A DNA stretch of 32,000 nucleotides from Paracoccus suum (lineage in GTDB: Bacteria > Pseudomonadota > Alphaproteobacteria > Rhodobacterales > Rhodobacteraceae): positions 2,460,001 through 2,492,000 of the forward strand of contig NZ_CP030918.1 in the NCBI RefSeq assembly GCF_003324675.1, given 5' to 3'. Made by a program: the position numbers and the translations under genes. Positions 5,247-15,754 of the stretch are shown piece after piece. The notes below the pieces were generated by a model that did no database searches, was not told the origin of the DNA, and saw only the letters and a list, made by a program, of their open reading frames with translations. Within the stretch, counting starts at the first letter, position 1, and each line of letters starts with the position of its first letter.

Positions 5247-6536
5247 ATGCAGCGCAGCAGCCGACCCTTTGCCCCGTTCGAGTTCATGATCGCCTGGCGC
5301 TATCTGCGCGCGCGCCGGGCCGAGGGCGGGGTCAGCGTCATGACCTGGATCAGCCTGATCGGCATCGCCCTTGGCGTCATGGCACTGATCGCGACCATGG
5401 CGGTGCGCTCGGGCTTTCGGGCCGAGTTCGTGGACACGATCCTCGGCGCCAACCCGCACACGACCCTTTACATGGCGCCGCGCCAGATCGACGACGAGAC
5501 GGCAGTGCCGGGGATCATCAGTGATTACGACGCCCTGACGCAGGCCGTTGCAGCCTTGCCCGGGGTCACGCGCGCGACCGCGGTGGTCAAAGGGCAAGTG
5601 CTGGTCCAGGCCGGAGATCGCTCAAACATCGGGCAGGTCTATGGCCTGACGCTGGCCGATCTGAAGGCGATCCCGCGCGTCGCGGACGCCGAGACCGGGA
5701 TCGGCAACATAGATGATTTCGACAGCGGCATCGCCATCGGCAGCGGCATCGCGCGCGAGCTTGGTGTCGGCGTCGGCAGCAGCGTGCGCCTGATCTCGCC
5801 CGATGGCGCGCAGACCGCCTTTGGCACGACGCCGCGTGTCAACGCCTACAAGGTGGCCTATATCTTCACCGCTGGGCGCTATGACATCGACCAGACCCGC
5901 GTCTACATGCCGCTGGCCGAAGCGCAGTCCTTCTTTAACCGCGAGGACGCCGCCGACGAGATCCAGATCATGACCACCGACCCCGAGCGGGTCGACCGCC
6001 TGACGCCGGCGCTGCTGGCCGCGGGCGGCGAGGGGGCGCAGGTCTGGACCTGGCGCGACAGCTCGGGCCAGTTTCTCAAGGCGCTCGATATCGAGGATGA
6101 CGTTATGTTCGTGATCCTGTCGATCCTGGTGCTGATCGCCTCGATGAACATCACCTCGGGGCTGATCATGCTGGTCAAGAACAAGGGCCGTGACATCGGC
6201 ATCCTGCGCACCATGGGGCTGACCCAGGGCTCGATCCTGCGGGTGTTCTTTCTGTGCGGTGCCTTCACCGGAATCATCGGAACGCTGATCGGCGTGGTGC
6301 TGGGTGTGGCGCTGTCACTGAACATCAGCAGCATTATGGCGGCAGTGAACTGGCTGACGGGGGGCGGGGCATGGGACCCCGCGATCCGGGGGATTTATGA
6401 GCTTCCCGCAAAGCTGCGCGGGATCGACCTGCTCAAGGCGGTCAGCCTGTCGTTGGTGCTGAGCCTGGTCGTTACCTGGTTCCCGGCCCGCCGGGCCGCT
6501 CGCATGAACCCGGTGGAGGCCCTGCGCTATGAATGA
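5247..6536 (+). CDS. Lipoprotein-releasing ABC transporter permease, LolC/LolE family
   Basis: N-terminus [14 protein letters not shown], a periplasmic MacB-like domain, and a C-terminal FtsX-type 3-TM bundle ending [16 protein letters not shown]. Overlaps lolD by 8 nt. Confidence 0.9.
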
Positions 6537-7188
6537 CGTGTTGCGCCTTCAGGGGATAGGCAAGACCTACAATCCCGGCACACCGGCCGCCGTCCCGGTG
6601 CTGTCCGATCTCGATCTCTCCATCGGCCGGGGCGAGGTCGTGGCCCTAGTCGCGCCGTCGGGCGCAGGCAAATCGACCCTGTTGCACATCGCCGGGCTGC
6701 TGGACACGCCGGACGAGGGACAGGTCGTCCTGCAGGGCCGCGATCTGACCGGGGCGTCGGACCGCCTGCGCACTCAGGCGCGCCGGCGCGAACTGGGCTT
6801 TGTCTATCAGTTCCACCACCTCCTGCCAGAGTTCTCGGCGCTGGAAAACGTGGTCCTGCCGCAACTGGCGAATGGCACGCCCGCTGGCGCTGCCCGGACC
6901 CGCGCGCGCAGCCTGCTGGCGCGCGTCGGCCTGACCGAACGCGAGGCGCATCGTCCCGCCGCCATGTCCGGCGGCGAGCAGCAGCGCGTCGCCTTCTGCC
7001 GCGCCCTCGCCAATGCCCCGGCGCTGATGCTGGCGGACGAGCCTACTGGCAACCTCGATCCCGGCACCGCCGATCAGGTATTCGACCTGCTGATGAATGT
7101 GGTTCGGGAAACCGGGCTATCGGCGCTAATCGCGACGCATAATATGGAGTTGGCCGGGCGGATGGACCGCGTGGTGCGGTTGGGGTGA
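6529..7188 (+). CDS. lolD: Lipoprotein-releasing system ATP-binding protein LolD
   Basis: Walker [10 protein letters not shown], signature MSGGEQQRV, Walker [13 protein letters not shown]. Translationally coupled to the LolC/E permease. Confidence 0.9.
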
Positions 7189-7219
7189 GGGGGAAGAATC
7201 ACGCTTAGTGACAATCTAA

Positions 7220-7684
7220 CTAAGTCTTCTGTGACTGCAAGAATTCCGTTATATTGCAGACTGACTCCACCAAACTTATTGCGTTCAGAAAAGAATCTCC
7301 AGGGCGAATAGAAAATACCTCGTCGCCCTCCAGGTATCTGTAATTCATGTTTAAATAGTCCGCGCCAATACAATCTATCAATTCCCCGAGTACGGGACGA
7401 AGAATTAAGAATTTGTTGAAGGCTTGTGGATTTCCATCGAGGGATTCCTCTACGGCATTGGTCAGTGCATCCAAGCGATGGCCGAACTTCCCTGTCTTCA
7501 GCTGGTCGGTAGAGAATCCCAGTTGCGATAGACACGCTTTCAATGACACCTCGAGAGCTAGTCCCGGCGAGAAATGTAGCGCTATCCAACTTGAATCTTC
7601 GCGCGGGATATTATTTTCATTCAAATAATTATAGGAAATTTTCACGAGATTAAGGTGGCCGATTCCAGGGATGAGATAAGGCAT
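7220..7684 (-). CDS. Hypothetical protein in a low-GC islet, possibly HEPN-fold (tentative)
   Basis: Only long ORF that fits the AT-rich segment. It uses A/T-ending and rare codons (ATA, AGA, TTA) unlike every other gene here. Motifs read by eye: LALEVSLKACL, GHRLDAL, YLNMNYRY, resembling classical HEPN landmarks. An in-frame TAG 8 codons upstream fixes the start at ATG 7684. Confidence 0.55.
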   Translation of the reverse strand: MPYLIPGIGHLNLVKISYNYLNENNIPREDSSWIALHFSPGLALEVSLKACLSQLGFSTDQLKTGKFGHRLDALTNAVEESLDGNPQAFNKFLILRPVLGELIDCIGADYLNMNYRYLEGDEVFSIRPGDSFLNAISLVESVCNITEFLQSQKT

Positions 7685-7787
7685 ATTCGGGGATTTCTTC
7701 CAATAGTGCTAACCACCAATCTTCTTCACCATAACTATTGTCGTGCCTATAATCTGATGCCCGCCTTATCGATCTAGTCAATCCTGC

Positions 7788-9752
7788 CTAAACATCCAGC
7801 TCCTCGACGAACTTGGCGTTCTCGCTGATATACTGGAAGCGTAGCTCCGGCTTCTTGCCCATCAGGCGCTCGACCAGATCGCCGGTCTCGCCGCCATCCT
7901 CGTCGTCGATGCTGACCCGGATCAACTTGCGGGTCTTGGGGTTCATGGTGGTGTCCTTCAGGTCCTTGGCGTCCATTTCGCCCAAGCCCTTGAACCGCTG
8001 CACGTCGATCTTGCCCTTGCCGCCGAGGCCCTTGGCCAGCCAGAGCTCTTTCTCGGCATCATCGGCGACATAGATGCGCGCCGCGCCCTGAGTCAGGCGG
8101 TAAAGCGGCGGGCAGGCGAGGTAGAGGTGCCCCTTGTCGATCATGCCGCGCATCTGGGTAAAGAAAAACGTCATCAGCAGGCTGGCGATATGGGCGCCGT
8201 CCACATCGGCGTCGGTCATGATGATGATCTTGTCATAGCGCAGATCGTCGAGGACGAAGCGGCTGCCCATCCCGGTGCCGAGGGCCTGGCAGAGATCCGA
8301 CAGCTCCTGGTTGGCGCCCATTTTCGAGGAAGCGGCGCCCAGCACGTTCAGGATCTTGCCCTTCAGCGGCAGCAGCGCCTGCTTGGTGCGATCGCGCGCC
8401 ATTTTGGCGCTGCCACCGGCGCTGTCGCCTTCGACGATGAACAGTTCGGTCCCCTCGCGGTTGGTAGCGCTGCAATCGACCAGCTTGCCGGGCAGGCGCA
8501 GCTTCTTGGTCGCGGACTTGCGAGCGGTTTCCTTTTCCTGGCGGCGGCGCAGACGTTCCTCGGCGCGCAGGACCAGGAAATCCAGGATCGCGCCAGCTGA
8601 CTTGGGATCGGACACCAACCAGTTGTCAAAGTGATCGCGCACAGCGCCTTCGACCAGCCGGGCGGCGTCCGTGGTGGCGAGGCGGTCCTTGGTCTGGCCG
8701 ACGAATTCGGGATCGCGAATAAAGCAGGACACCAGGGCGCAACCGCCGGTCAGCAGGTCCTCGCGGGTGATCGCCTCGGCCTTGCGGTTCTTGATGCGCT
8801 CGCCATAGGCGCGCACGCCCTTGAGGATCGCAGACCAGAAGCCGGCCTCATGGGTGCCGCCCTCGGGGGTCGGCACGGTGTTGCAGTAGGACTGGATGAA
8901 GCCATCGCGCGCGGGGGTCCAGTTGATCGCCCAGTCGACCTTGCCCGGCACGCTAAACTTTTCGGCAAAATCGACGCTGCCGGCGAAGGGGCGGTCGGCA
9001 TAGATACTGACGGTGCTCAGTTGTTCGGCCAGGTAGTCGGCGAGGCCGCCGGGAAAATGAAACACGGCCTCGGCGGGGGTCTCGCCATCATCGATTTCGC
9101 TGCGCCAGCGGATCTCGACGCCACTGAACAGATAGGCCTTGGACTTGACCATGCGCATCATGCGCGCGGGCTTCAGCCGGTGGTGCCCAAAGATCTCCTC
9201 GTCGGGGTGGAAGGTGACCGTGGTGCCGCCCCGCTGCCGGGTCGGGCCGACCATTTCCACCGGCCCCTGCGGGATGCCGCGGCTGAAGGATTGCCGCCAT
9301 AGCTCGCGGTTGCGGGCGACCTCGACCACCATCCGGTCAGACAGCGCGTTGACAACCGAGGCACCGACGCCGTGGAGCCCCCCCGAGGTCTGGTAGGCGT
9401 CCCCCGAGAACTTGCCACCGGCATGCAGGGTGCACAGGATCACCTCCAGCGCGGATTTTCCGGGAAACTTCGGGTGTGGGTCGACCGGGATGCCCCGGCC
9501 ATCGTCGCGGACCGAGGCGCTGCCGTCGGCCATCAGGGTGACCTCGATCCGGCTTGCGTGGCCGGCGACGGCCTCGTCCATGCTGTTGTCGAGGATTTCG
9601 GCGACCAGGTGGTGCAGCGCGCGCTCGTCCGTGCCGCCGATATACATGCCTGGCCGCTTGCGCACCGGCTCCAGCCCCTCGAGCACCTCGATCGAGGCGG
9701 CAGAGTAGTTGTCGGCGGACAGGGTCGAGAGCAGGTCGGCGGGCATTGGCAA
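7788..9752 (-). CDS. parE: DNA topoisomerase IV subunit B
   Basis: GHKL ATPase N-box EILDNSMDEA, GLHGVGASVVNALS, Toprim EGDSAGGSA and IMTDADVDGAHI, PLKGKILNV. Its 654-aa length fits ParE rather than the ~800-aa GyrB. Confidence 0.9.
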   Translation of the reverse strand: MPMPADLLSTLSADNYSAASIEVLEGLEPVRKRPGMYIGGTDERALHHLVAEILDNSMDEAVAGHASRIEVTLMADGSASVRDDGRGIPVDPHPKFPGKSALEVILCTLHAGGKFSGDAYQTSGGLHGVGASVVNALSDRMVVEVARNRELWRQSFSRGIPQGPVEMVGPTRQRGGTTVTFHPDEEIFGHHRLKPARMMRMVKSKAYLFSGVEIRWRSEIDDGETPAEAVFHFPGGLADYLAEQLSTVSIYADRPFAGSVDFAEKFSVPGKVDWAINWTPARDGFIQSYCNTVPTPEGGTHEAGFWSAILKGVRAYGERIKNRKAEAITREDLLTGGCALVSCFIRDPEFVGQTKDRLATTDAARLVEGAVRDHFDNWLVSDPKSAGAILDFLVLRAEERLRRRQEKETARKSATKKLRLPGKLVDCSATNREGTELFIVEGDSAGGSAKMARDRTKQALLPLKGKILNVLGAASSKMGANQELSDLCQALGTGMGSRFVLDDLRYDKIIIMTDADVDGAHIASLLMTFFFTQMRGMIDKGHLYLACPPLYRLTQGAARIYVADDAEKELWLAKGLGGKGKIDVQRFKGLGEMDAKDLKDTTMNPKTRKLIRVSIDDEDGGETGDLVERLMGKKPELRFQYISENAKFVEELDV

Positions 9753-10596: not shown

Positions 10597-10680
10597 TGAG
10601 GCCTCCGTTGCCGTGATCGCGCCACGCTATGCGGTTGCCGCGGGCGGGGGAAGCGCCGGCTTGGGGACGGCGCGAGGCGG

Positions 10681-11748
10681 CTAGAGGTAGTCGTCGATGC
10701 CGCTGCCGCTCACCTCGGCGACATTGGCAAACCCCTCGCGCGCCAGCCGCTCGTCCAGCGCCTCGGCGATGCGGGGCGCCAGCGACAGGCCCTGATAGAC
10801 GAGGGCGGAATAGAGCTGCACCGCGGACGCACCGGCGCGCAGCTTGTCCCAGGCGTCCTCGGCCGAGGTGACGCCGCCGACGCCGATCAGCGGGATGCGC
10901 CCCGCCGTCAACCGGGCTAGGCGGGCGAGAATGGCGGTCGAGCGACCGAGCAGAGGCGCGCCGGACAGGCCGCCGGCCTCGGCAGCATGGGGTCCGCTGA
11001 CGCCATCGCGCGACAAGGTGGTGTTGGTGGCGATGATGGCGCTGACGCCGGAGTTGAGGGCGACCCCGGCGAGGTCCGCCAGCTCGGCCTCGCTCAGGTC
11101 CGGCGCGATCTTCAGCAGCACCGGCACGCCCGGGGCGAGGCGGTCGCGGGTCGCCAAAACGCCGGCCAGCAGCGCCTCCAGCGCCGCCGGGCCCTGCAGA
11201 TCGCGCAGCCGCTCGGTGTTAGGCGAACTGACGTTGACGGTCAGGAAATCGACCGCGTGGCCAGCCTCGGCCACTACCGCAGAAAAGTCGGCCGCGCGGT
11301 CGGGGCTGTCCTTGTTGGCGCCGATGTTCAGCCCGACCGGCACCGCGAAGGGCCTGCCGGCGGCAAGCCGGGCGGCGATCATTGCCGCGCCGTCATTGTT
11401 GAAGCCGAAGCGGTTGATGATCGCGCCTTCGGCGGACAGGCGGAACAGCCGCGGGCGCGGGTTGCCGGGCTGCGCCCGCGGGGTCGCGGCGCCCACCTCG
11501 ACAAAGCCGAAGCCCGCGCGCGACAGCTCTTCCGCGACAACTGCATTCTTGTCGAAGCCTGCCGCCAGCCCGACCGGGTTCGGCAGCGTCATGCCCGCCA
11601 GTTGCGTGACCAGCCGGTCTGAGGTCACCGGCCCGCCGTGCAGGGGCGCCAGCCCCCGCGCGAGGGCTGAAATCGCGAGTTGATGGGCCGTTTCCGGCGG
11701 TAGCCGATGCAAAGCGGCAAGCCCAAGGCGTTCGCGCAGATGGGTCAC
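10681..11748 (-). CDS. pyrD: Dihydroorotate dehydrogenase (quinone), class 2
   Basis: [37 protein letters not shown] motifs. Start set at GTG 11748, which overlaps the DUF952 stop as GTGA. The upstream part of the 455-aa ORF overlaps the DUF952 gene. Confidence 0.88.
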
Positions 11749-12080
11749 GTCAGATCGCCCAGGACATGCCCCTCGGGACCTAGCGGCAGGCGGCGCGACC
11801 AGACCAGATCCTCCATCGTCAGGGCGCGGTAGAGATGCGGGAACAGATCGCCGCCACGCGCCGGCTCCCACTGCAGGGCCTGGCCGAGGGCGTCCGCATC
11901 GAACGCCGCGAGGATCAACCCGTCCTCGCGCGTGAAATGCTTGGCGGCGGTGGCCGCCAGTTGCTCGGCGGTCGAGAAATGGATGTAGCCATCGCTTACA
12001 TCGATCGGCGCGCCTGTAAAGCGGCCGGTATTCTCGTAAGCGTCCCATTCATCCGGGCGCAGGATTTTGAAGATCAGCAT
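11745..12080 (-). CDS. DUF952 domain-containing protein
   Basis: [40 protein letters not shown] matches the DUF952 pattern as I recall it. Start at ATG 12080. Confidence 0.75.
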
Positions 12081-12222
12081 GGGCCCGGTTCTGCGGTCTG
12101 GCGGCCGGGCGGTCAAGGCGTCACACCTGTGTCATCGCCCAAGGCTAGCCCTTCGGCGGCTTGACCGCCGGGACAGACTGGCGCCTGATCAGCCGCATGA
12201 CCGTGACGAAAGGTGCCGACCG

Positions 12223-13824
12223 ATGATCCGACTCCTCGCCTCGACCGCCGTATTCGCGCTGCTGGGTAGCGCCGCGCAGGCCGATTACGTGCTGCATGTG
12301 TTGCACACCAACGACCTGCACAGCCGCATCGAGCAAATCAACGACAAGGACAGCACCTGTGACGCCGAATCCGATGCCAAGGGCGAGTGCTTTGGTGGCG
12401 TCGCCCGCGTGGCGGCAAAGGCCCGCGAGCTGCGTGACCAGATCAAGGCCGAGGGCGGCAACGCGATCCTGATCGACGCCGGGGACCAGTACCAAGGCAG
12501 CCTGTTCTACACGACCTACAAGGGCGCCGACACGGTAGAGTTCATGAACGCCATCGGCTACGACGCCATGGCGGTCGGCAACCACGAGTTCGACGACGGC
12601 CCCGAGGGGCTGGCGGTGCTGTTGAACGGCGCCAAGTTCCCGGTCCTGTCGGGCAACCTGGATGTCTCGCAGTCCAACATCCTCAAGGACAAGTTGAAGG
12701 ACACGGTGGTGCTGGATGTCGGCGGCCAAAAGATCGGCCTCGTTTCTGCGCTCGCCATGGATACGCCAGAGACCAGCTCACCCGGCGCCTCTGTGATCTT
12801 TCAGGACGACCTCGACAGCCTCAAGGGTGACGTTCAGGCGCTGACTGACGAGGGTGTCAACAAGATCATCGCGCTGACCCATGTCGGCTATCTGCGCGAT
12901 CAGGACATCGCCGCGCAGGTGCCGGGTCTCGATGCCGTGGTCGGCGGTCACAGCCATACGCTGCTTGGCGGCATGGAGGGCGCGGCGGGTCCCTATCCGA
13001 CCATGGTCAAGGGACCGGACGGCACCGAGGTGCCAGTGGTCACCGCCTATTCCTATTCGAAATACCTCGGCCATCTTATTCTGACCTTTGATGATTCCGG
13101 TAAGCTGCTGAAGGCCGAGGGCGCGCCGGCGCTGCTGGACGCCTCGGTCAAGCCGGATGAGGCCATCGCCGCCCGCGTCAAGGAGATGGCGGCCCCGATC
13201 GAGGCGCTGCGCAACAAGCAGGTGGCCGAGACCGCGGCGCCGATCGACGGCGGTCGCGAGACCTGCCGGGCGAAGGAGTGCGAGATGGGCGATCTGGTGG
13301 CCGACGCCATGCTGGATCGGGTCAAGGGGCAGGGCGTGACCATCGCCATCCAGAACGGGGGCGGCCTGCGCGCCTCGATCGACGCCGGGCCGATGACCAT
13401 GGGCGAGGTGTATTCCGTCCTGCCGTTCCAGAACACGCTGTCGACATTCGAGGCGCCCGGCTCGTCCGTCCTCGCGGCGCTGGAGAACGGCGCCAGCCAG
13501 TACGAGGAGGCCGCGGGCCGGTTCGCGCAGGTGGCCGGCCTGAAATACACCGTTGATCCCAAGGCCGAGGTCGGCAAGCGGATCAGCGATGTGCAGGTGC
13601 AGGCGGCGGATGGCAGCTGGGGGCCGATCTCACCCTCGGCGGACTACAAGATCGTCACCAACAACTACATGCGCGGCGGCGGCGACGGCTACAAGATGTT
13701 CGCCACCGACGGCAAGAACGCCTATGACTACGGCCCCGACCTGGCCGAAGTGCTGGCGGATTACGTCTCGAAGCTGGGGCCGGACTACGCGCCCAAGCTG
13801 GATGGGCGCATCACCGTCAAGTAA
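12223..13824 (+). CDS. Secreted bifunctional metallophosphatase / 5'-nucleotidase (UshA-like)
   Basis: Signal peptide MIRLLASTAVFALLGSAAQA. Metallophosphoesterase motifs LHTNDLHSR, DAGDQYQG, GNHEFD, GGHSH. C-terminal 5'-nucleotidase domain. Confidence 0.88.
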   Translation: MIRLLASTAVFALLGSAAQADYVLHVLHTNDLHSRIEQINDKDSTCDAESDAKGECFGGVARVAAKARELRDQIKAEGGNAILIDAGDQYQGSLFYTTYKGADTVEFMNAIGYDAMAVGNHEFDDGPEGLAVLLNGAKFPVLSGNLDVSQSNILKDKLKDTVVLDVGGQKIGLVSALAMDTPETSSPGASVIFQDDLDSLKGDVQALTDEGVNKIIALTHVGYLRDQDIAAQVPGLDAVVGGHSHTLLGGMEGAAGPYPTMVKGPDGTEVPVVTAYSYSKYLGHLILTFDDSGKLLKAEGAPALLDASVKPDEAIAARVKEMAAPIEALRNKQVAETAAPIDGGRETCRAKECEMGDLVADAMLDRVKGQGVTIAIQNGGGLRASIDAGPMTMGEVYSVLPFQNTLSTFEAPGSSVLAALENGASQYEEAAGRFAQVAGLKYTVDPKAEVGKRISDVQVQAADGSWGPISPSADYKIVTNNYMRGGGDGYKMFATDGKNAYDYGPDLAEVLADYVSKLGPDYAPKLDGRITVK

Positions 13825-14881: not shown

Positions 14882-14914
14882 GATCGTTCCTCCCCCTGAG
14901 GTCATGGCTTGATT

Positions 14915-15754
14915 TCAGCGCCGTCGTTGCGAGGGATGCCAGAACGTCGCGCGTCCCTCGATCCACGCGACGATACCGTAGAAGGCCGAGCCGGCGAGGG
15001 CCGCGACAAGGATTTCCGCCCAGACGAGGCCCAGATCCAGCTTTCCCACGGCGGTCGAGATGCGAAAGCCCATGCCGCGAGTCGGACTGCCAAAGAATTC
15101 CGCAACGATGGCACCGATCAGCGCGAGCGTGGTGGTGATTTTGAGGCCGTTGAACAAAAACGGCAGCGCGGCGGGCAGGCGCATGCTCCACAGCCCGCGC
15201 CAGTAGCCCGCGCCCCAGGTCGCCATCAGGTCGCGCTGCAGCGCGTCGGTCGCGGCCAGGCCGGCGACCATGTTCACAAGGATCGGAAAGAACACCATGA
15301 CCACGACGACGGCGGCCTTTGACTGCCAGTCAAAGCCGAACCACATGACCAGGATCGGGGCGATGCCAACGATTGGCAGAGCGGCGACAAAGTTCCCTAC
15401 CGGCAGCAGCCCGCGCTGCAGAAAGTCCGAGCGGTCGATGGCGATGGCCGTGACGACGGCCGCAAGTGCGCCGATGATCCAGCCCGACAGCGCGCCCTTC
15501 AGGATCGTCTGGACGAAATCACCCCAGAGCAGAGGCAGATTTCCTGTGAAGCTAGCCCAGATGGCCGAAGGAGCAGGCAGGATCACCGCCGGAATGGCGA
15601 AATACCGGCAGGCAAGTTCCCATAGCAGAAGGATTGTCAGCCCGAACACTGCCGCGACGGAGAGGCGGCTGGCGCGGCTGCCGATCCGGGCCAGCCACAG
15701 GTTGATCGCCATGCCGACGGCCCAGACCGCAACGAGGGGCAGTGCCGCGCTCAC
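14915..15754 (-). CDS. ABC transporter permease (NitT/TauT family), second of two
   Basis: Six-TM profile with an EAA-type loop WGAGYWRGLWSMRLPAALPFLFNGLK. GTG 15754 overlaps the upstream permease stop as GTGA. An ATG 14 codons downstream is an alternative start. Confidence 0.8.
   Translation of the reverse strand: MSAALPLVAVWAVGMAINLWLARIGSRASRLSVAAVFGLTILLLWELACRYFAIPAVILPAPSAIWASFTGNLPLLWGDFVQTILKGALSGWIIGALAAVVTAIAIDRSDFLQRGLLPVGNFVAALPIVGIAPILVMWFGFDWQSKAAVVVVMVFFPILVNMVAGLAATDALQRDLMATWGAGYWRGLWSMRLPAALPFLFNGLKITTTLALIGAIVAEFFGSPTRGMGFRISTAVGKLDLGLVWAEILVAALAGSAFYGIVAWIEGRATFWHPSQRRR

Follow-up and report, generated by a model that had tools for sequence, protein, structure and literature searches.

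A low-G+C islet between lolD and parE of Paracoccus suum carries a solitary gene for a putative divergent HEPN-like protein

What is a short, sharply bounded stretch of low-G+C DNA doing between lolD and parE of Paracoccus suum, and what might its only gene encode? We addressed this question in a 32-kb window (the whole stretch of DNA analyzed, from a 3.25-Mb chromosomal contig), in which the islet occupies positions 7189–7787, the entire 599-nt interval from the lolD stop to the parE stop. The islet carries one open reading frame (ORF), ORF154 (7220–7684, minus strand, 154 aa), which belongs to an unannotated alphaproteobacterial family and whose product appears to be a divergent helical bundle similar to HEPN-T and AbiV proteins. 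The reading that we favor, with a probability of about one half, is that this foreign islet bears a solitary, divergent HEPN-like protein that would target RNA as a toxin or an abortive-infection-type effector; this reading is drawn from sequence comparison and a predicted structure.

The islet has a G+C content of 44.7%, against a window mean of 66.1% (standard deviation 3.9%, in 599-nt windows), and it is the sole region below 58% G+C within the 32 kb. A preliminary description of this DNA, made from the letters alone, had put 7201–7790 at about 44% G+C, which the computed value bears out. A maximum-likelihood (maximum-scoring-segment) analysis delimited a low-G+C segment at 7194–7838 with a log-likelihood ratio (LLR) of 61, while the next best segment of the window reached an LLR of 8. 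The delimited segment overruns the parE stop by about 50 nt. The last 20 codons of parE showed a G+C content at third codon positions (GC3) of 0.80, and a G+C dip at the parE end is common to the orthologues of P. denitrificans and Paracoccus sp. MKU1. The overrun is thus a matter of amino-acid composition and not of foreign DNA. Since the 3' end of parE is host-like in GC3 and its dip is shared with the orthologues, the foreign DNA begins at the two stop codons, and a recombination boundary within parE was ruled out by the same host-like GC3. Both flanks of ORF154 inside the islet are AT-rich as well, with 43.7% G+C in the 103-nt flank and 45.2% in the 31-nt flank.

The two genes that enclose the islet are intact host genes. 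lolD (6529–7188, plus strand), encoding a lipoprotein-releasing ABC ATPase, has a GC3 of 0.82, and its product is 74–76% identical to other Paracoccus LolD proteins over residues 1–219. parE (7788–9752, minus strand), encoding topoisomerase IV subunit B, has a GC3 of 0.87 and is the immediate upstream neighbor of ORF154, with which it shares the strand; its product is 87% identical to the Paracoccus orthologues up to the C-terminal EELDV and the stop. The comparison with other Paracoccus thus confirmed that both gene ends are complete, as had been described. In other Rhodobacterales with these neighbors, the lolD–parE interval measures 0.9–3.4 kb and has host composition and variable content. 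The junctions compared were those of P. denitrificans DSM 413 (L007:6660-7600) and Paracoccus sp. MKU1 (L001:6660-8030), which were the two Paracoccus junctions besides that of P. suum (74–76% LolD identity), together with L002, L004, L011 and L019. The intervals of P. denitrificans and MKU1 span 0.9–1.4 kb at 66–71% G+C and contain a PAP2-family gene that overlaps the lolD stop and a membrane-protein gene that abuts parE, the latter being, as we presume, YnfA-like. P. suum has neither gene here. An empty site had been expected at the junction in related genomes; because other Paracoccus carry genes there, the P. suum islet is better described as a replacement of resident genes than as an insertion into an empty site.

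Taken together, the 599-bp islet is foreign, horizontally acquired DNA, because its composition and codon usage are off-host, its boundaries fall at stop codons, and different genes of host composition occupy the same junction elsewhere; the horizontal acquisition proposed in the preliminary description fits these data. No tRNA was found in the 32-kb window and no convincing direct repeat at the islet, again as had been described; convincing inverted repeats and tandem repeats were not found there either, so that the repeat and tRNA searches gave no supporting evidence for an insertion sequence (IS) element or for a tRNA-targeted or repeat-flanked insertion. An integron cassette was likewise rejected, since only 31 nt follow the stop of ORF154, these hold no attC-type inverted repeat, and the window holds no integrase. 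A phage or plasmid origin was rejected as well: a tblastn search of 50,697 phage records with ORF154 gave noise only (E ≥ 6), and a search of 72,556 plasmids gave nothing, as was the case for the relatives P0012 and P0021. Another relative, P0041, did have matches on plasmids of Mesorhizobium and Microvirga, to four genes labeled "hypothetical protein".

ORF154 is a genuine protein-coding gene that is conserved and, by all appearances, intact. Its GC3 is 0.50, compared with 0.79–0.90 in 25 likely host ORFs, and its codon adaptation index (CAI) is 0.28, compared with 0.59–0.75 in four host genes. A/T-ending codons account for half of the ORF but for 15% of host genes, and ATA, TTA and AGA are enriched 10- to 30-fold, which puts numbers on the codon usage that had been pointed out for this ORF. 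When the islet was shuffled 5000 times, a stretch of 155 or more codons free of stops appeared in only 13 cases. The product is identical to an NCBI entry, "hypothetical protein [Paracoccus suum]", and the gene can be considered real because it keeps all invariant and near-invariant columns of its family. Its N-terminus is 10–13 residues shorter than that of most relatives, and the missing part falls in a non-conserved region. A 43-aa ORF with a TTG start (7650–7781, minus strand) lies in the leader and overlaps the ORF154 start in another frame. A longer or frameshifted gene that includes this ORF was rejected, as it bears no similarity to the N-terminal parts of the relatives and the structural model of ORF154 already has a complete helix 1. 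No evidence of coding was found for the small ORF.

To define the family, we searched protein collections with ORF154 and with profiles built from its relatives. Among 5.8 billion proteins, a word-indexed search recovered none but ORF154 itself, which places the gene in a single genome, and no protein more than 40% identical to it was found among about 15 billion. An exhaustive phmmer search of 1.84 billion cluster representatives detected 13 relatives (28–40% identity, 152–175 aa, E = 8e-18 to 2e-4), and profile iterations extended the family to 36 and then to at least 324 proteins; the homologue search that had been proposed was therefore productive. All family proteins are called "hypothetical", and no Pfam domain appears in any of the 120 that were listed. 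Every named source is alphaproteobacterial (Rhizobiales, Bradyrhizobium, Mesorhizobium, Rhodopseudomonas, Bosea, Gluconobacter and Sphingobium). The proteins fall into three subfamilies, which hhalign joined into one family (99.4% probability, E = 2e-21, between subfamilies), and the P. suum protein falls in the rarest of them. In an alignment of 40 sequences that share 17–37% identity with ORF154, seven columns were invariant in 40/40 sequences (E45, K49, L52, L62, H69, R116 and Y117), and six were near-invariant (G9, G41, A43, G56, L71 and L74), all of which ORF154 has. The three motifs that had been singled out by eye were found at their places and coincide with these family-invariant columns. 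Residues 42–52, LALEVSLKACL (7529–7561, minus strand), form part of helix 2 and hold E45, K49 and L52; residues 68–74, GHRLDAL (7463–7483, minus strand), hold H69 in an insert between core helices 2 and 3; and residues 110–121, YLNMNYRYLEGD (7322–7357, minus strand), hold R116-Y117 in the loop after helix 3, the third motif itself being confined to residues 110–117. The motif region of ORF154 thus reads R116-x4-D121, in place of R-x4-6-H. Among 33 members, the position R+5 is occupied by D in 12, E in 5, A in 8 and T in 4, and is acidic in 17/33.

Direct assignment of ORF154 alone to a known family was rejected, as Pfam, NCBIfam, PADLOC, PHROGs and the PDB sequences gave nothing useful, and an NCBIfam scan of 40 members returned noise only. 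In contrast to the single protein, its relatives repeatedly selected one Pfam family, PF05168 (HEPN), which was the top and sole recurrent match across family members. PF05168 was matched by 3 of the 14 members of set A1, 11 of the 33 of set A2, 8 of the 9 of a first subfamily C set, and 29 of the 37 of set A4 (subfamily C). About 50 different members picked this model from 24,736 models, while any other family was picked by at most 4 members per scan. The best match had E = 3.5e-4 and about 21 bits, with scores up to 20.8, and the matches covered positions 4–94 of the 117 of the profile. ORF154 is not filed under PF05168, as the curated threshold was tested and not reached.

The structure of ORF154 was then predicted with AlphaFold2. 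Prediction from the single sequence was unusable (predicted local distance difference test score, pLDDT, 43.7), while that from a 33-sequence alignment gave a pLDDT of 92.6 and a predicted template-modeling (TM) score (pTM) of 0.88. The predicted protein has core helices at residues 4–23, 39–54, 86–111 and 130–153, and insert helices at 59–63 and 71–84 within an insert region at 55–85, so that the model shows the fold described for the HEPN superfamily (PMC3710099). In a Foldseek search of this model against 350,542 PDB chains, HEPN structures made up 7 of the top 11 matches, namely 1jog (HI0074), 6m6w_B (HepT), 2q00 (SsR10), two chains of 3o10 (sacsin HEPN), 8xeh_D (HEPN-MNT complex) and 2hsb (AF0298). 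The best TM-score was that of 2hsb (0.50/0.58), and 1wwp, 2jpu and the LsoA structure 5hy3 followed lower in the list. A fold search of BFVD returned nothing meaningful.

The residues that are invariant in the family were compared with published descriptions of HEPN domains. HEPN domains have a conserved acidic residue in helix 2 (Anantharaman et al. 2013, PMC3710099), and in AF0298-type HEPN-T and AbiV proteins an alternative conserved histidine comes from an insert between helices 2 and 3 (PMC3710099). In the AF0298 type, the histidine of the motif is absent or replaced by D and a second conserved H lies N-terminal to the motif; the combination of R with the alternative H has been argued to be possibly catalytic (PMC3710099). 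In ORF154, the acidic residue of helix 2 is E45, in predicted helix 39–54; the invariant H69 (40/40) lies in the 55–85 insert; and D121 stands at R+5. E45, H69 and R116 thus take the predicted positions of the HEPN acidic residue, the alternative histidine and the motif arginine. On these sequence and model data, we consider it likely that ORF154 encodes a divergent HEPN-superfamily domain of the AF0298/AbiV type.

Four groups of known systems were compared with ORF154 in turn. The AF0298-type HEPN-T proteins (PF05168; PDB 2hsb, also 1wwp and 1o3u), which gave the best Pfam match and the best TM-score, share with it the small four-helix bundle with a helix 2–3 insert, the motif order AxExxLKAxL (helix 2), xHxLxxL and xRY after helix 3, and a motif histidine that is replaced (D121 in P. 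suum) along with a second histidine from the insert; standalone versions are also known among them. The ORF154 family differs in its length of about 155–175 aa versus a 117-position domain model, its larger insert, its longer loop between helices 3 and 4, and its sub-threshold scores; it was never found beside a minimal nucleotidyltransferase (MNT) in the sampled loci, and its named sources are all Alphaproteobacteria. AbiV, a lactococcal HEPN RNase of abortive infection, is small, solitary and without a protein partner, as is ORF154, and it is listed as having the alternative histidine in common with the first family of HEPN-T proteins (PMC3710099). In the AbiV family, the R/H motif is variable and an E/K pair is conserved in the dimer-forming helix; AbiV degrades rRNA and is restrained by the RNA antitoxin abiV2, in a type III toxin–antitoxin (TA)-like manner. 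Foreign composition is typical of abi genes. By analogy, AbiV is the nearest functional counterpart of ORF154, although lactococcal AbiV has 91-RNHKSKH-97 and ORF154 has no such motif, neither ORF154 nor 40 family members matched Pfam HEPN_AbiV or PADLOC AbiV, and in the islet neither tandem repeats nor an Rfam match were found, the leader and the 3' spacer being no more structured than shuffles. The HepT/MntA (HEPN/MNT) systems of TA type II/VII (SO_3166/SO_3165; 6m6w, 1jog and 8xeh) have the same superfamily fold, a small size and a conserved Tyr near the motif Arg, whereas ORF154 lacks RX4HXY, and no MNT antitoxin gene neighbors it or any homologue in the loci examined. Finally, non-catalytic HEPN proteins (human sacsin HEPN 3o10, the C-terminal domain of kanamycin nucleotidyltransferase, and MtlR) have, like ORF154, the helical fold without the canonical dyad and E-x3-K in the second helix, and sacsin HEPN is among the top Foldseek matches. 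These proteins belong to larger proteins or are operon regulators, whereas ORF154 is a free-standing, horizontally mobile single gene whose family has five invariant polar residues, suggesting catalysis.

The genomic surroundings of relatives were examined in 11 independent contexts. No nucleotidyltransferase (MNT) lies next to ORF154 or its homologues in any of them, so that the lack of both an Rx4-6H motif and an MNT partner, first described for the islet, holds in the islet and across these contexts. An all-against-all BLAST of neighbors across the loci detected no conserved neighbor gene, and Pfam scans of the neighbors gave weak matches to helix-turn-helix (HTH), VRR-NUC, NUDIX and ribosomal S10 families, with no family in common. 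A partial gene upstream of P0002 was considered as a RES toxin, which Pfam did not confirm. Several contexts are of a mobile or conflict type. P0012 is carried on what seems to be a small Rep3-type plasmid, which also bears MazEF, a pair of HTH genes and a Tn3 transposase (L081-L084, wastewater metagenome contigs), with a downstream neighbor that weakly matches a VRR-NUC nuclease; P0012 is indexed in 76 blocks of the assembly collection, and the plasmid is apparently widespread in many wastewater assemblies. Another relative is accompanied by a resolvase, IS91, an integrase and a KAP NTPase; one from Gluconobacter by a RepA/ParA/integrase element with an OLD-family nuclease; and one by a MobA/TraD/Mrr/RelE element. 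In Bradyrhizobium sp. CSA112 (JAACFS010000001.1, L097:7495-8498), an island holds SIR2-HerA, a DNA ligase, a resolvase and an integrase. There the stop of a 169-aa gene overlaps the start of P0060; the upstream gene encodes a distant paralogue (23.8 bits against the family hidden Markov model) with the same E..LKA.L / GH.L / RY motifs, and the pair, at 7495–8004 and 8001–8498, suggests a heterodimeric version in a defense-island setting.

Other relatives are solitary. They were found upstream of rpsJ, after a gene for an extracytoplasmic function (ECF) sigma factor, near gyrB, and between genes for an amidohydrolase and TctC; in two separate metagenomes, an amidohydrolase gene is followed after 4 nt by the start of P0022. 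In Bosea caraganae (QQTP01000014.1, L098:7512-8566), the gene is placed between rpoD and a LysE-family gene and has 47% G+C within a 67% G+C locus and a GC3 of 0.50, an islet architecture as in P. suum although the genus is unrelated. The family gene of L085 has 50% G+C in surroundings of 68%, and these two loci are the extremes. In 8 of the 11 contexts, the gene lies at least 5 G+C points below its surroundings, so that the family recurrently takes the form of compact low-G+C single-gene islets. P0002, the closest relative (39% identity), is on a contig of about 42% G+C, near the composition of the islet, which is a hint at the kind of donor.

Expression signals of ORF154 were sought in the AT-rich leader of 103 nt between the parE stop and the ORF154 start (7685–7787, minus strand), which contains no terminator, strong promoter or stable structure. 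No terminator-like site was detected in 6900–8100, in agreement with the lack of a terminator between parE and the ORF reported before, and because nothing terminator-like separates the two, read-through from parE is a plausible source of transcription. The leader fold was not beyond shuffles (z-score +0.28), and no Rfam match was found in the islet, so that no riboswitch, small RNA or type III antitoxin was found there; an unstructured antisense or leader RNA is conceivable. The 31-nt spacer between the converging stops of lolD and ORF154 (7189–7219) has a weak AT-rich hairpin only, with fold z-scores of −0.33 and −0.76 that are no different from shuffles, and it is without a terminator-like site. 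P. denitrificans likewise has a same-strand gene that abuts the 3' end of parE. The sole sigma-70-like consensus match in 6900–8100 (TTCACC-17-TATAAT, 10/12; 7725–7753, plus strand) lies inside the leader and is directed, antisense, into the 3' end of parE; it is probably a chance match, as the match count equals the shuffle expectation.

On the basis of sequence and modeled structure, the history and function of the islet may be pictured as follows. Foreign DNA of 599 bp would have replaced the genes that other Paracoccus carry between lolD and parE, bringing one intact gene for a 154-aa, probably all-helical protein from a divergent HEPN branch near AF0298-type HEPN-T (PF05168) and AbiV. The canonical Rx4-6H histidine would have been lost (R116-x4-D121), and an alternative active site might be formed by H69, R116 and E45 with K49. 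The protein would dimerize like other HEPN domains and act on RNA, most likely as a metal-independent endoribonuclease that stays inactive until triggered, and it might serve as a solitary toxin or an abortive-infection-type effector. Its transcription would probably come from parE read-through or from its own AT-rich leader. The data show the islet, its gene, the family and the invariant residues with their predicted positions. The HEPN homology of the family is probable; dimerization, RNase activity, the defense role and expression are what we infer, and the case for a defense or toxin function and for parE read-through is circumstantial.

Several results weigh against this picture. ORF154 itself matched nothing in Pfam, NCBIfam, PADLOC or the PDB sequences even at E ≤ 10; no family member reached the Pfam gathering score of 22 bits for HEPN; and PDB sequence searches with three family profiles retrieved no HEPN chain. 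None of the Foldseek matches was individually significant (E = 0.38–1.1, TM-scores of 0.27–0.58, probability at most 0.77). R116 is present at the expected location of the Rx4-6H motif, but no H follows it, and the acidic residue at R+5 is only about 50% conserved. PADLOC gave weak matches to one candidate model in 5/40 members (E ≥ 4e-4), and we found no literature on the PADLOC model PDC-M28A. No antitoxin (protein partner, repeat RNA or structured RNA) was found, and without one an always-active RNase would hardly be tolerable. The leader contains no minus-strand promoter match, the only Shine-Dalgarno-like signal of ORF154 on inspection of the sequence is a distant, weak GGAAG, no defense or mobile genes were found near the islet in the P. 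suum window, and several relatives reside in plain metabolic or housekeeping contexts. The earlier suggestion that the protein is HEPN-like held up, as the invariant motifs, the recurrent PF05168, the top Foldseek ranks and the topology of the residues agree with it, while every match stayed below threshold; the earlier interpretation was thus largely confirmed, apart from the putative function. The structural check proposed with it had a mixed outcome, in that the model was confident and HEPN structures ranked at the top, but no match was significant.

Given these results, other explanations of the islet were weighed. The gene might encode a non-catalytic HEPN-like binder of nucleotides or RNA, an adaptor or a regulator (roles that have been proposed for MtlR, sacsin HEPN and nucleotidyltransferase-fused HEPN domains) that is neither toxic nor defensive. 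This fits the lack of Rx4-6H in ORF154, the conservation of an antitoxin or partner in 0/11 contexts, and the operonic appearance of some relatives with metabolic genes (P0022 with the amidohydrolase gene); the invariant E-x3-K also recalls what we take to be the nucleotide-contacting Glu145 and Lys149 in the helical domain of kanamycin nucleotidyltransferase. The five invariant polar or charged residues (E45, K49, H69, R116 and Y117), however, look more like an active site than a surface for binding, the arrangement of R with an alternative H could still be catalytic (PMC3710099), and the frequent plasmids and integrative elements, the SIR2-HerA island and the persistently foreign composition also speak against it, so that we regard a non-catalytic role as rather unlikely. 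We consider it decidedly improbable that the helical bundle has no relation to HEPN and represents a new domain of unknown function, in which ExxLKAxL, GHxL and RY have arisen by convergence. Helical-bundle folds are readily matched by chance, the Foldseek E-values of 0.4–1 come with de novo designed helical bundles among the matches, all HEPN matches are sub-threshold, and the three profiles found no match among PDB sequences. Yet about 50 members independently choose PF05168 among 24,736 models, HEPN structures are strongly over-represented at the Foldseek top with the highest probabilities and the lowest root-mean-square deviations, and the order, spacing and structural location of the motifs agree with the published description of HEPN-T and AbiV.

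A further explanation bears on expression rather than on fold: ORF154 could be a silent passenger, and the islet an unexpressed remnant, now decaying, of what was once a larger foreign island, e.g., silenced AT-rich xenogeneic DNA. The islet is without a recognizable promoter, strong ribosome-binding site, terminator or mobility gene, the gene occurs in one genome only with very poor codon adaptation, and its N-terminus is 10–13 residues shorter than that of most relatives. Against decay, the reading frame is uninterrupted, as would rarely be so by chance (13/5000 shuffles), all invariant and near-invariant residues are kept, the missing N-terminus is non-conserved and helix 1 is complete in the model, and the tight single-gene architecture recurs independently (Bosea caraganae after rpoD; L085); we therefore hold a remnant to be very improbable. 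The reading of a foreign islet with an RNA-targeting HEPN-like effector could also be extended to the whole family, as a partner-less HEPN-type family with an R/H/E/K site that spreads among Alphaproteobacteria as single-gene micro-islets of about 0.5–1 kb beside core genes (parE, rpoD, rpsJ) without a recognizable recombinase, repeats or an attachment site, and that amounts to the smallest form of an abortive-infection or toxin system, a single gene that an RNA may keep in check; this extension is speculative and, at present, seems quite unlikely.

The rest of the window is unremarkable in comparison, and its remaining genes are ordinary housekeeping and transport genes. The segment with the second-lowest G+C content (13048–13096, 49 nt, 36.7% G+C, LLR 8) lies within a 5'-nucleotidase-family gene (12067–13824); this dip is much weaker than the islet and is probably merely local composition. 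No ORF passing a simple filter (GC3 ≥ 0.78, GC2, the corresponding value at second codon positions, ≤ 0.56) was found in 10597–11744 or in 14906–15750, and the G+C content around 10.6–11.7 kb is 0.70–0.75.

If the proposed reading is true, ORF154 represents an unannotated family of at least 324 proteins that has no Pfam, NCBIfam or PADLOC model, and a divergent, partner-less branch of HEPN that keeps only the "alternative" R/H active site predicted in 2013 for the AF0298 type and AbiV. We found no biochemical test of this alternative site in the literature, and one study of AbiV credits the canonical RNHKSKH; ORF154, with 154 aa, would be a compact test case for RNA cleavage by the alternative arrangement. 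The islet also raises the question of how sharp, single-gene, low-G+C islets enter high-G+C alphaproteobacterial chromosomes beside core genes without visible mobility machinery. The HEPN superfamily is very large and includes many divergent, partner-less families, to which that of ORF154 would add a further branch. For P. suum the consequence is modest, as the islet contributes one strain-specific accessory gene; for the family, the finding is mildly notable in that a large family without a model would combine an alternative-only active site with a recurrent occurrence in sharp islets beside core genes.

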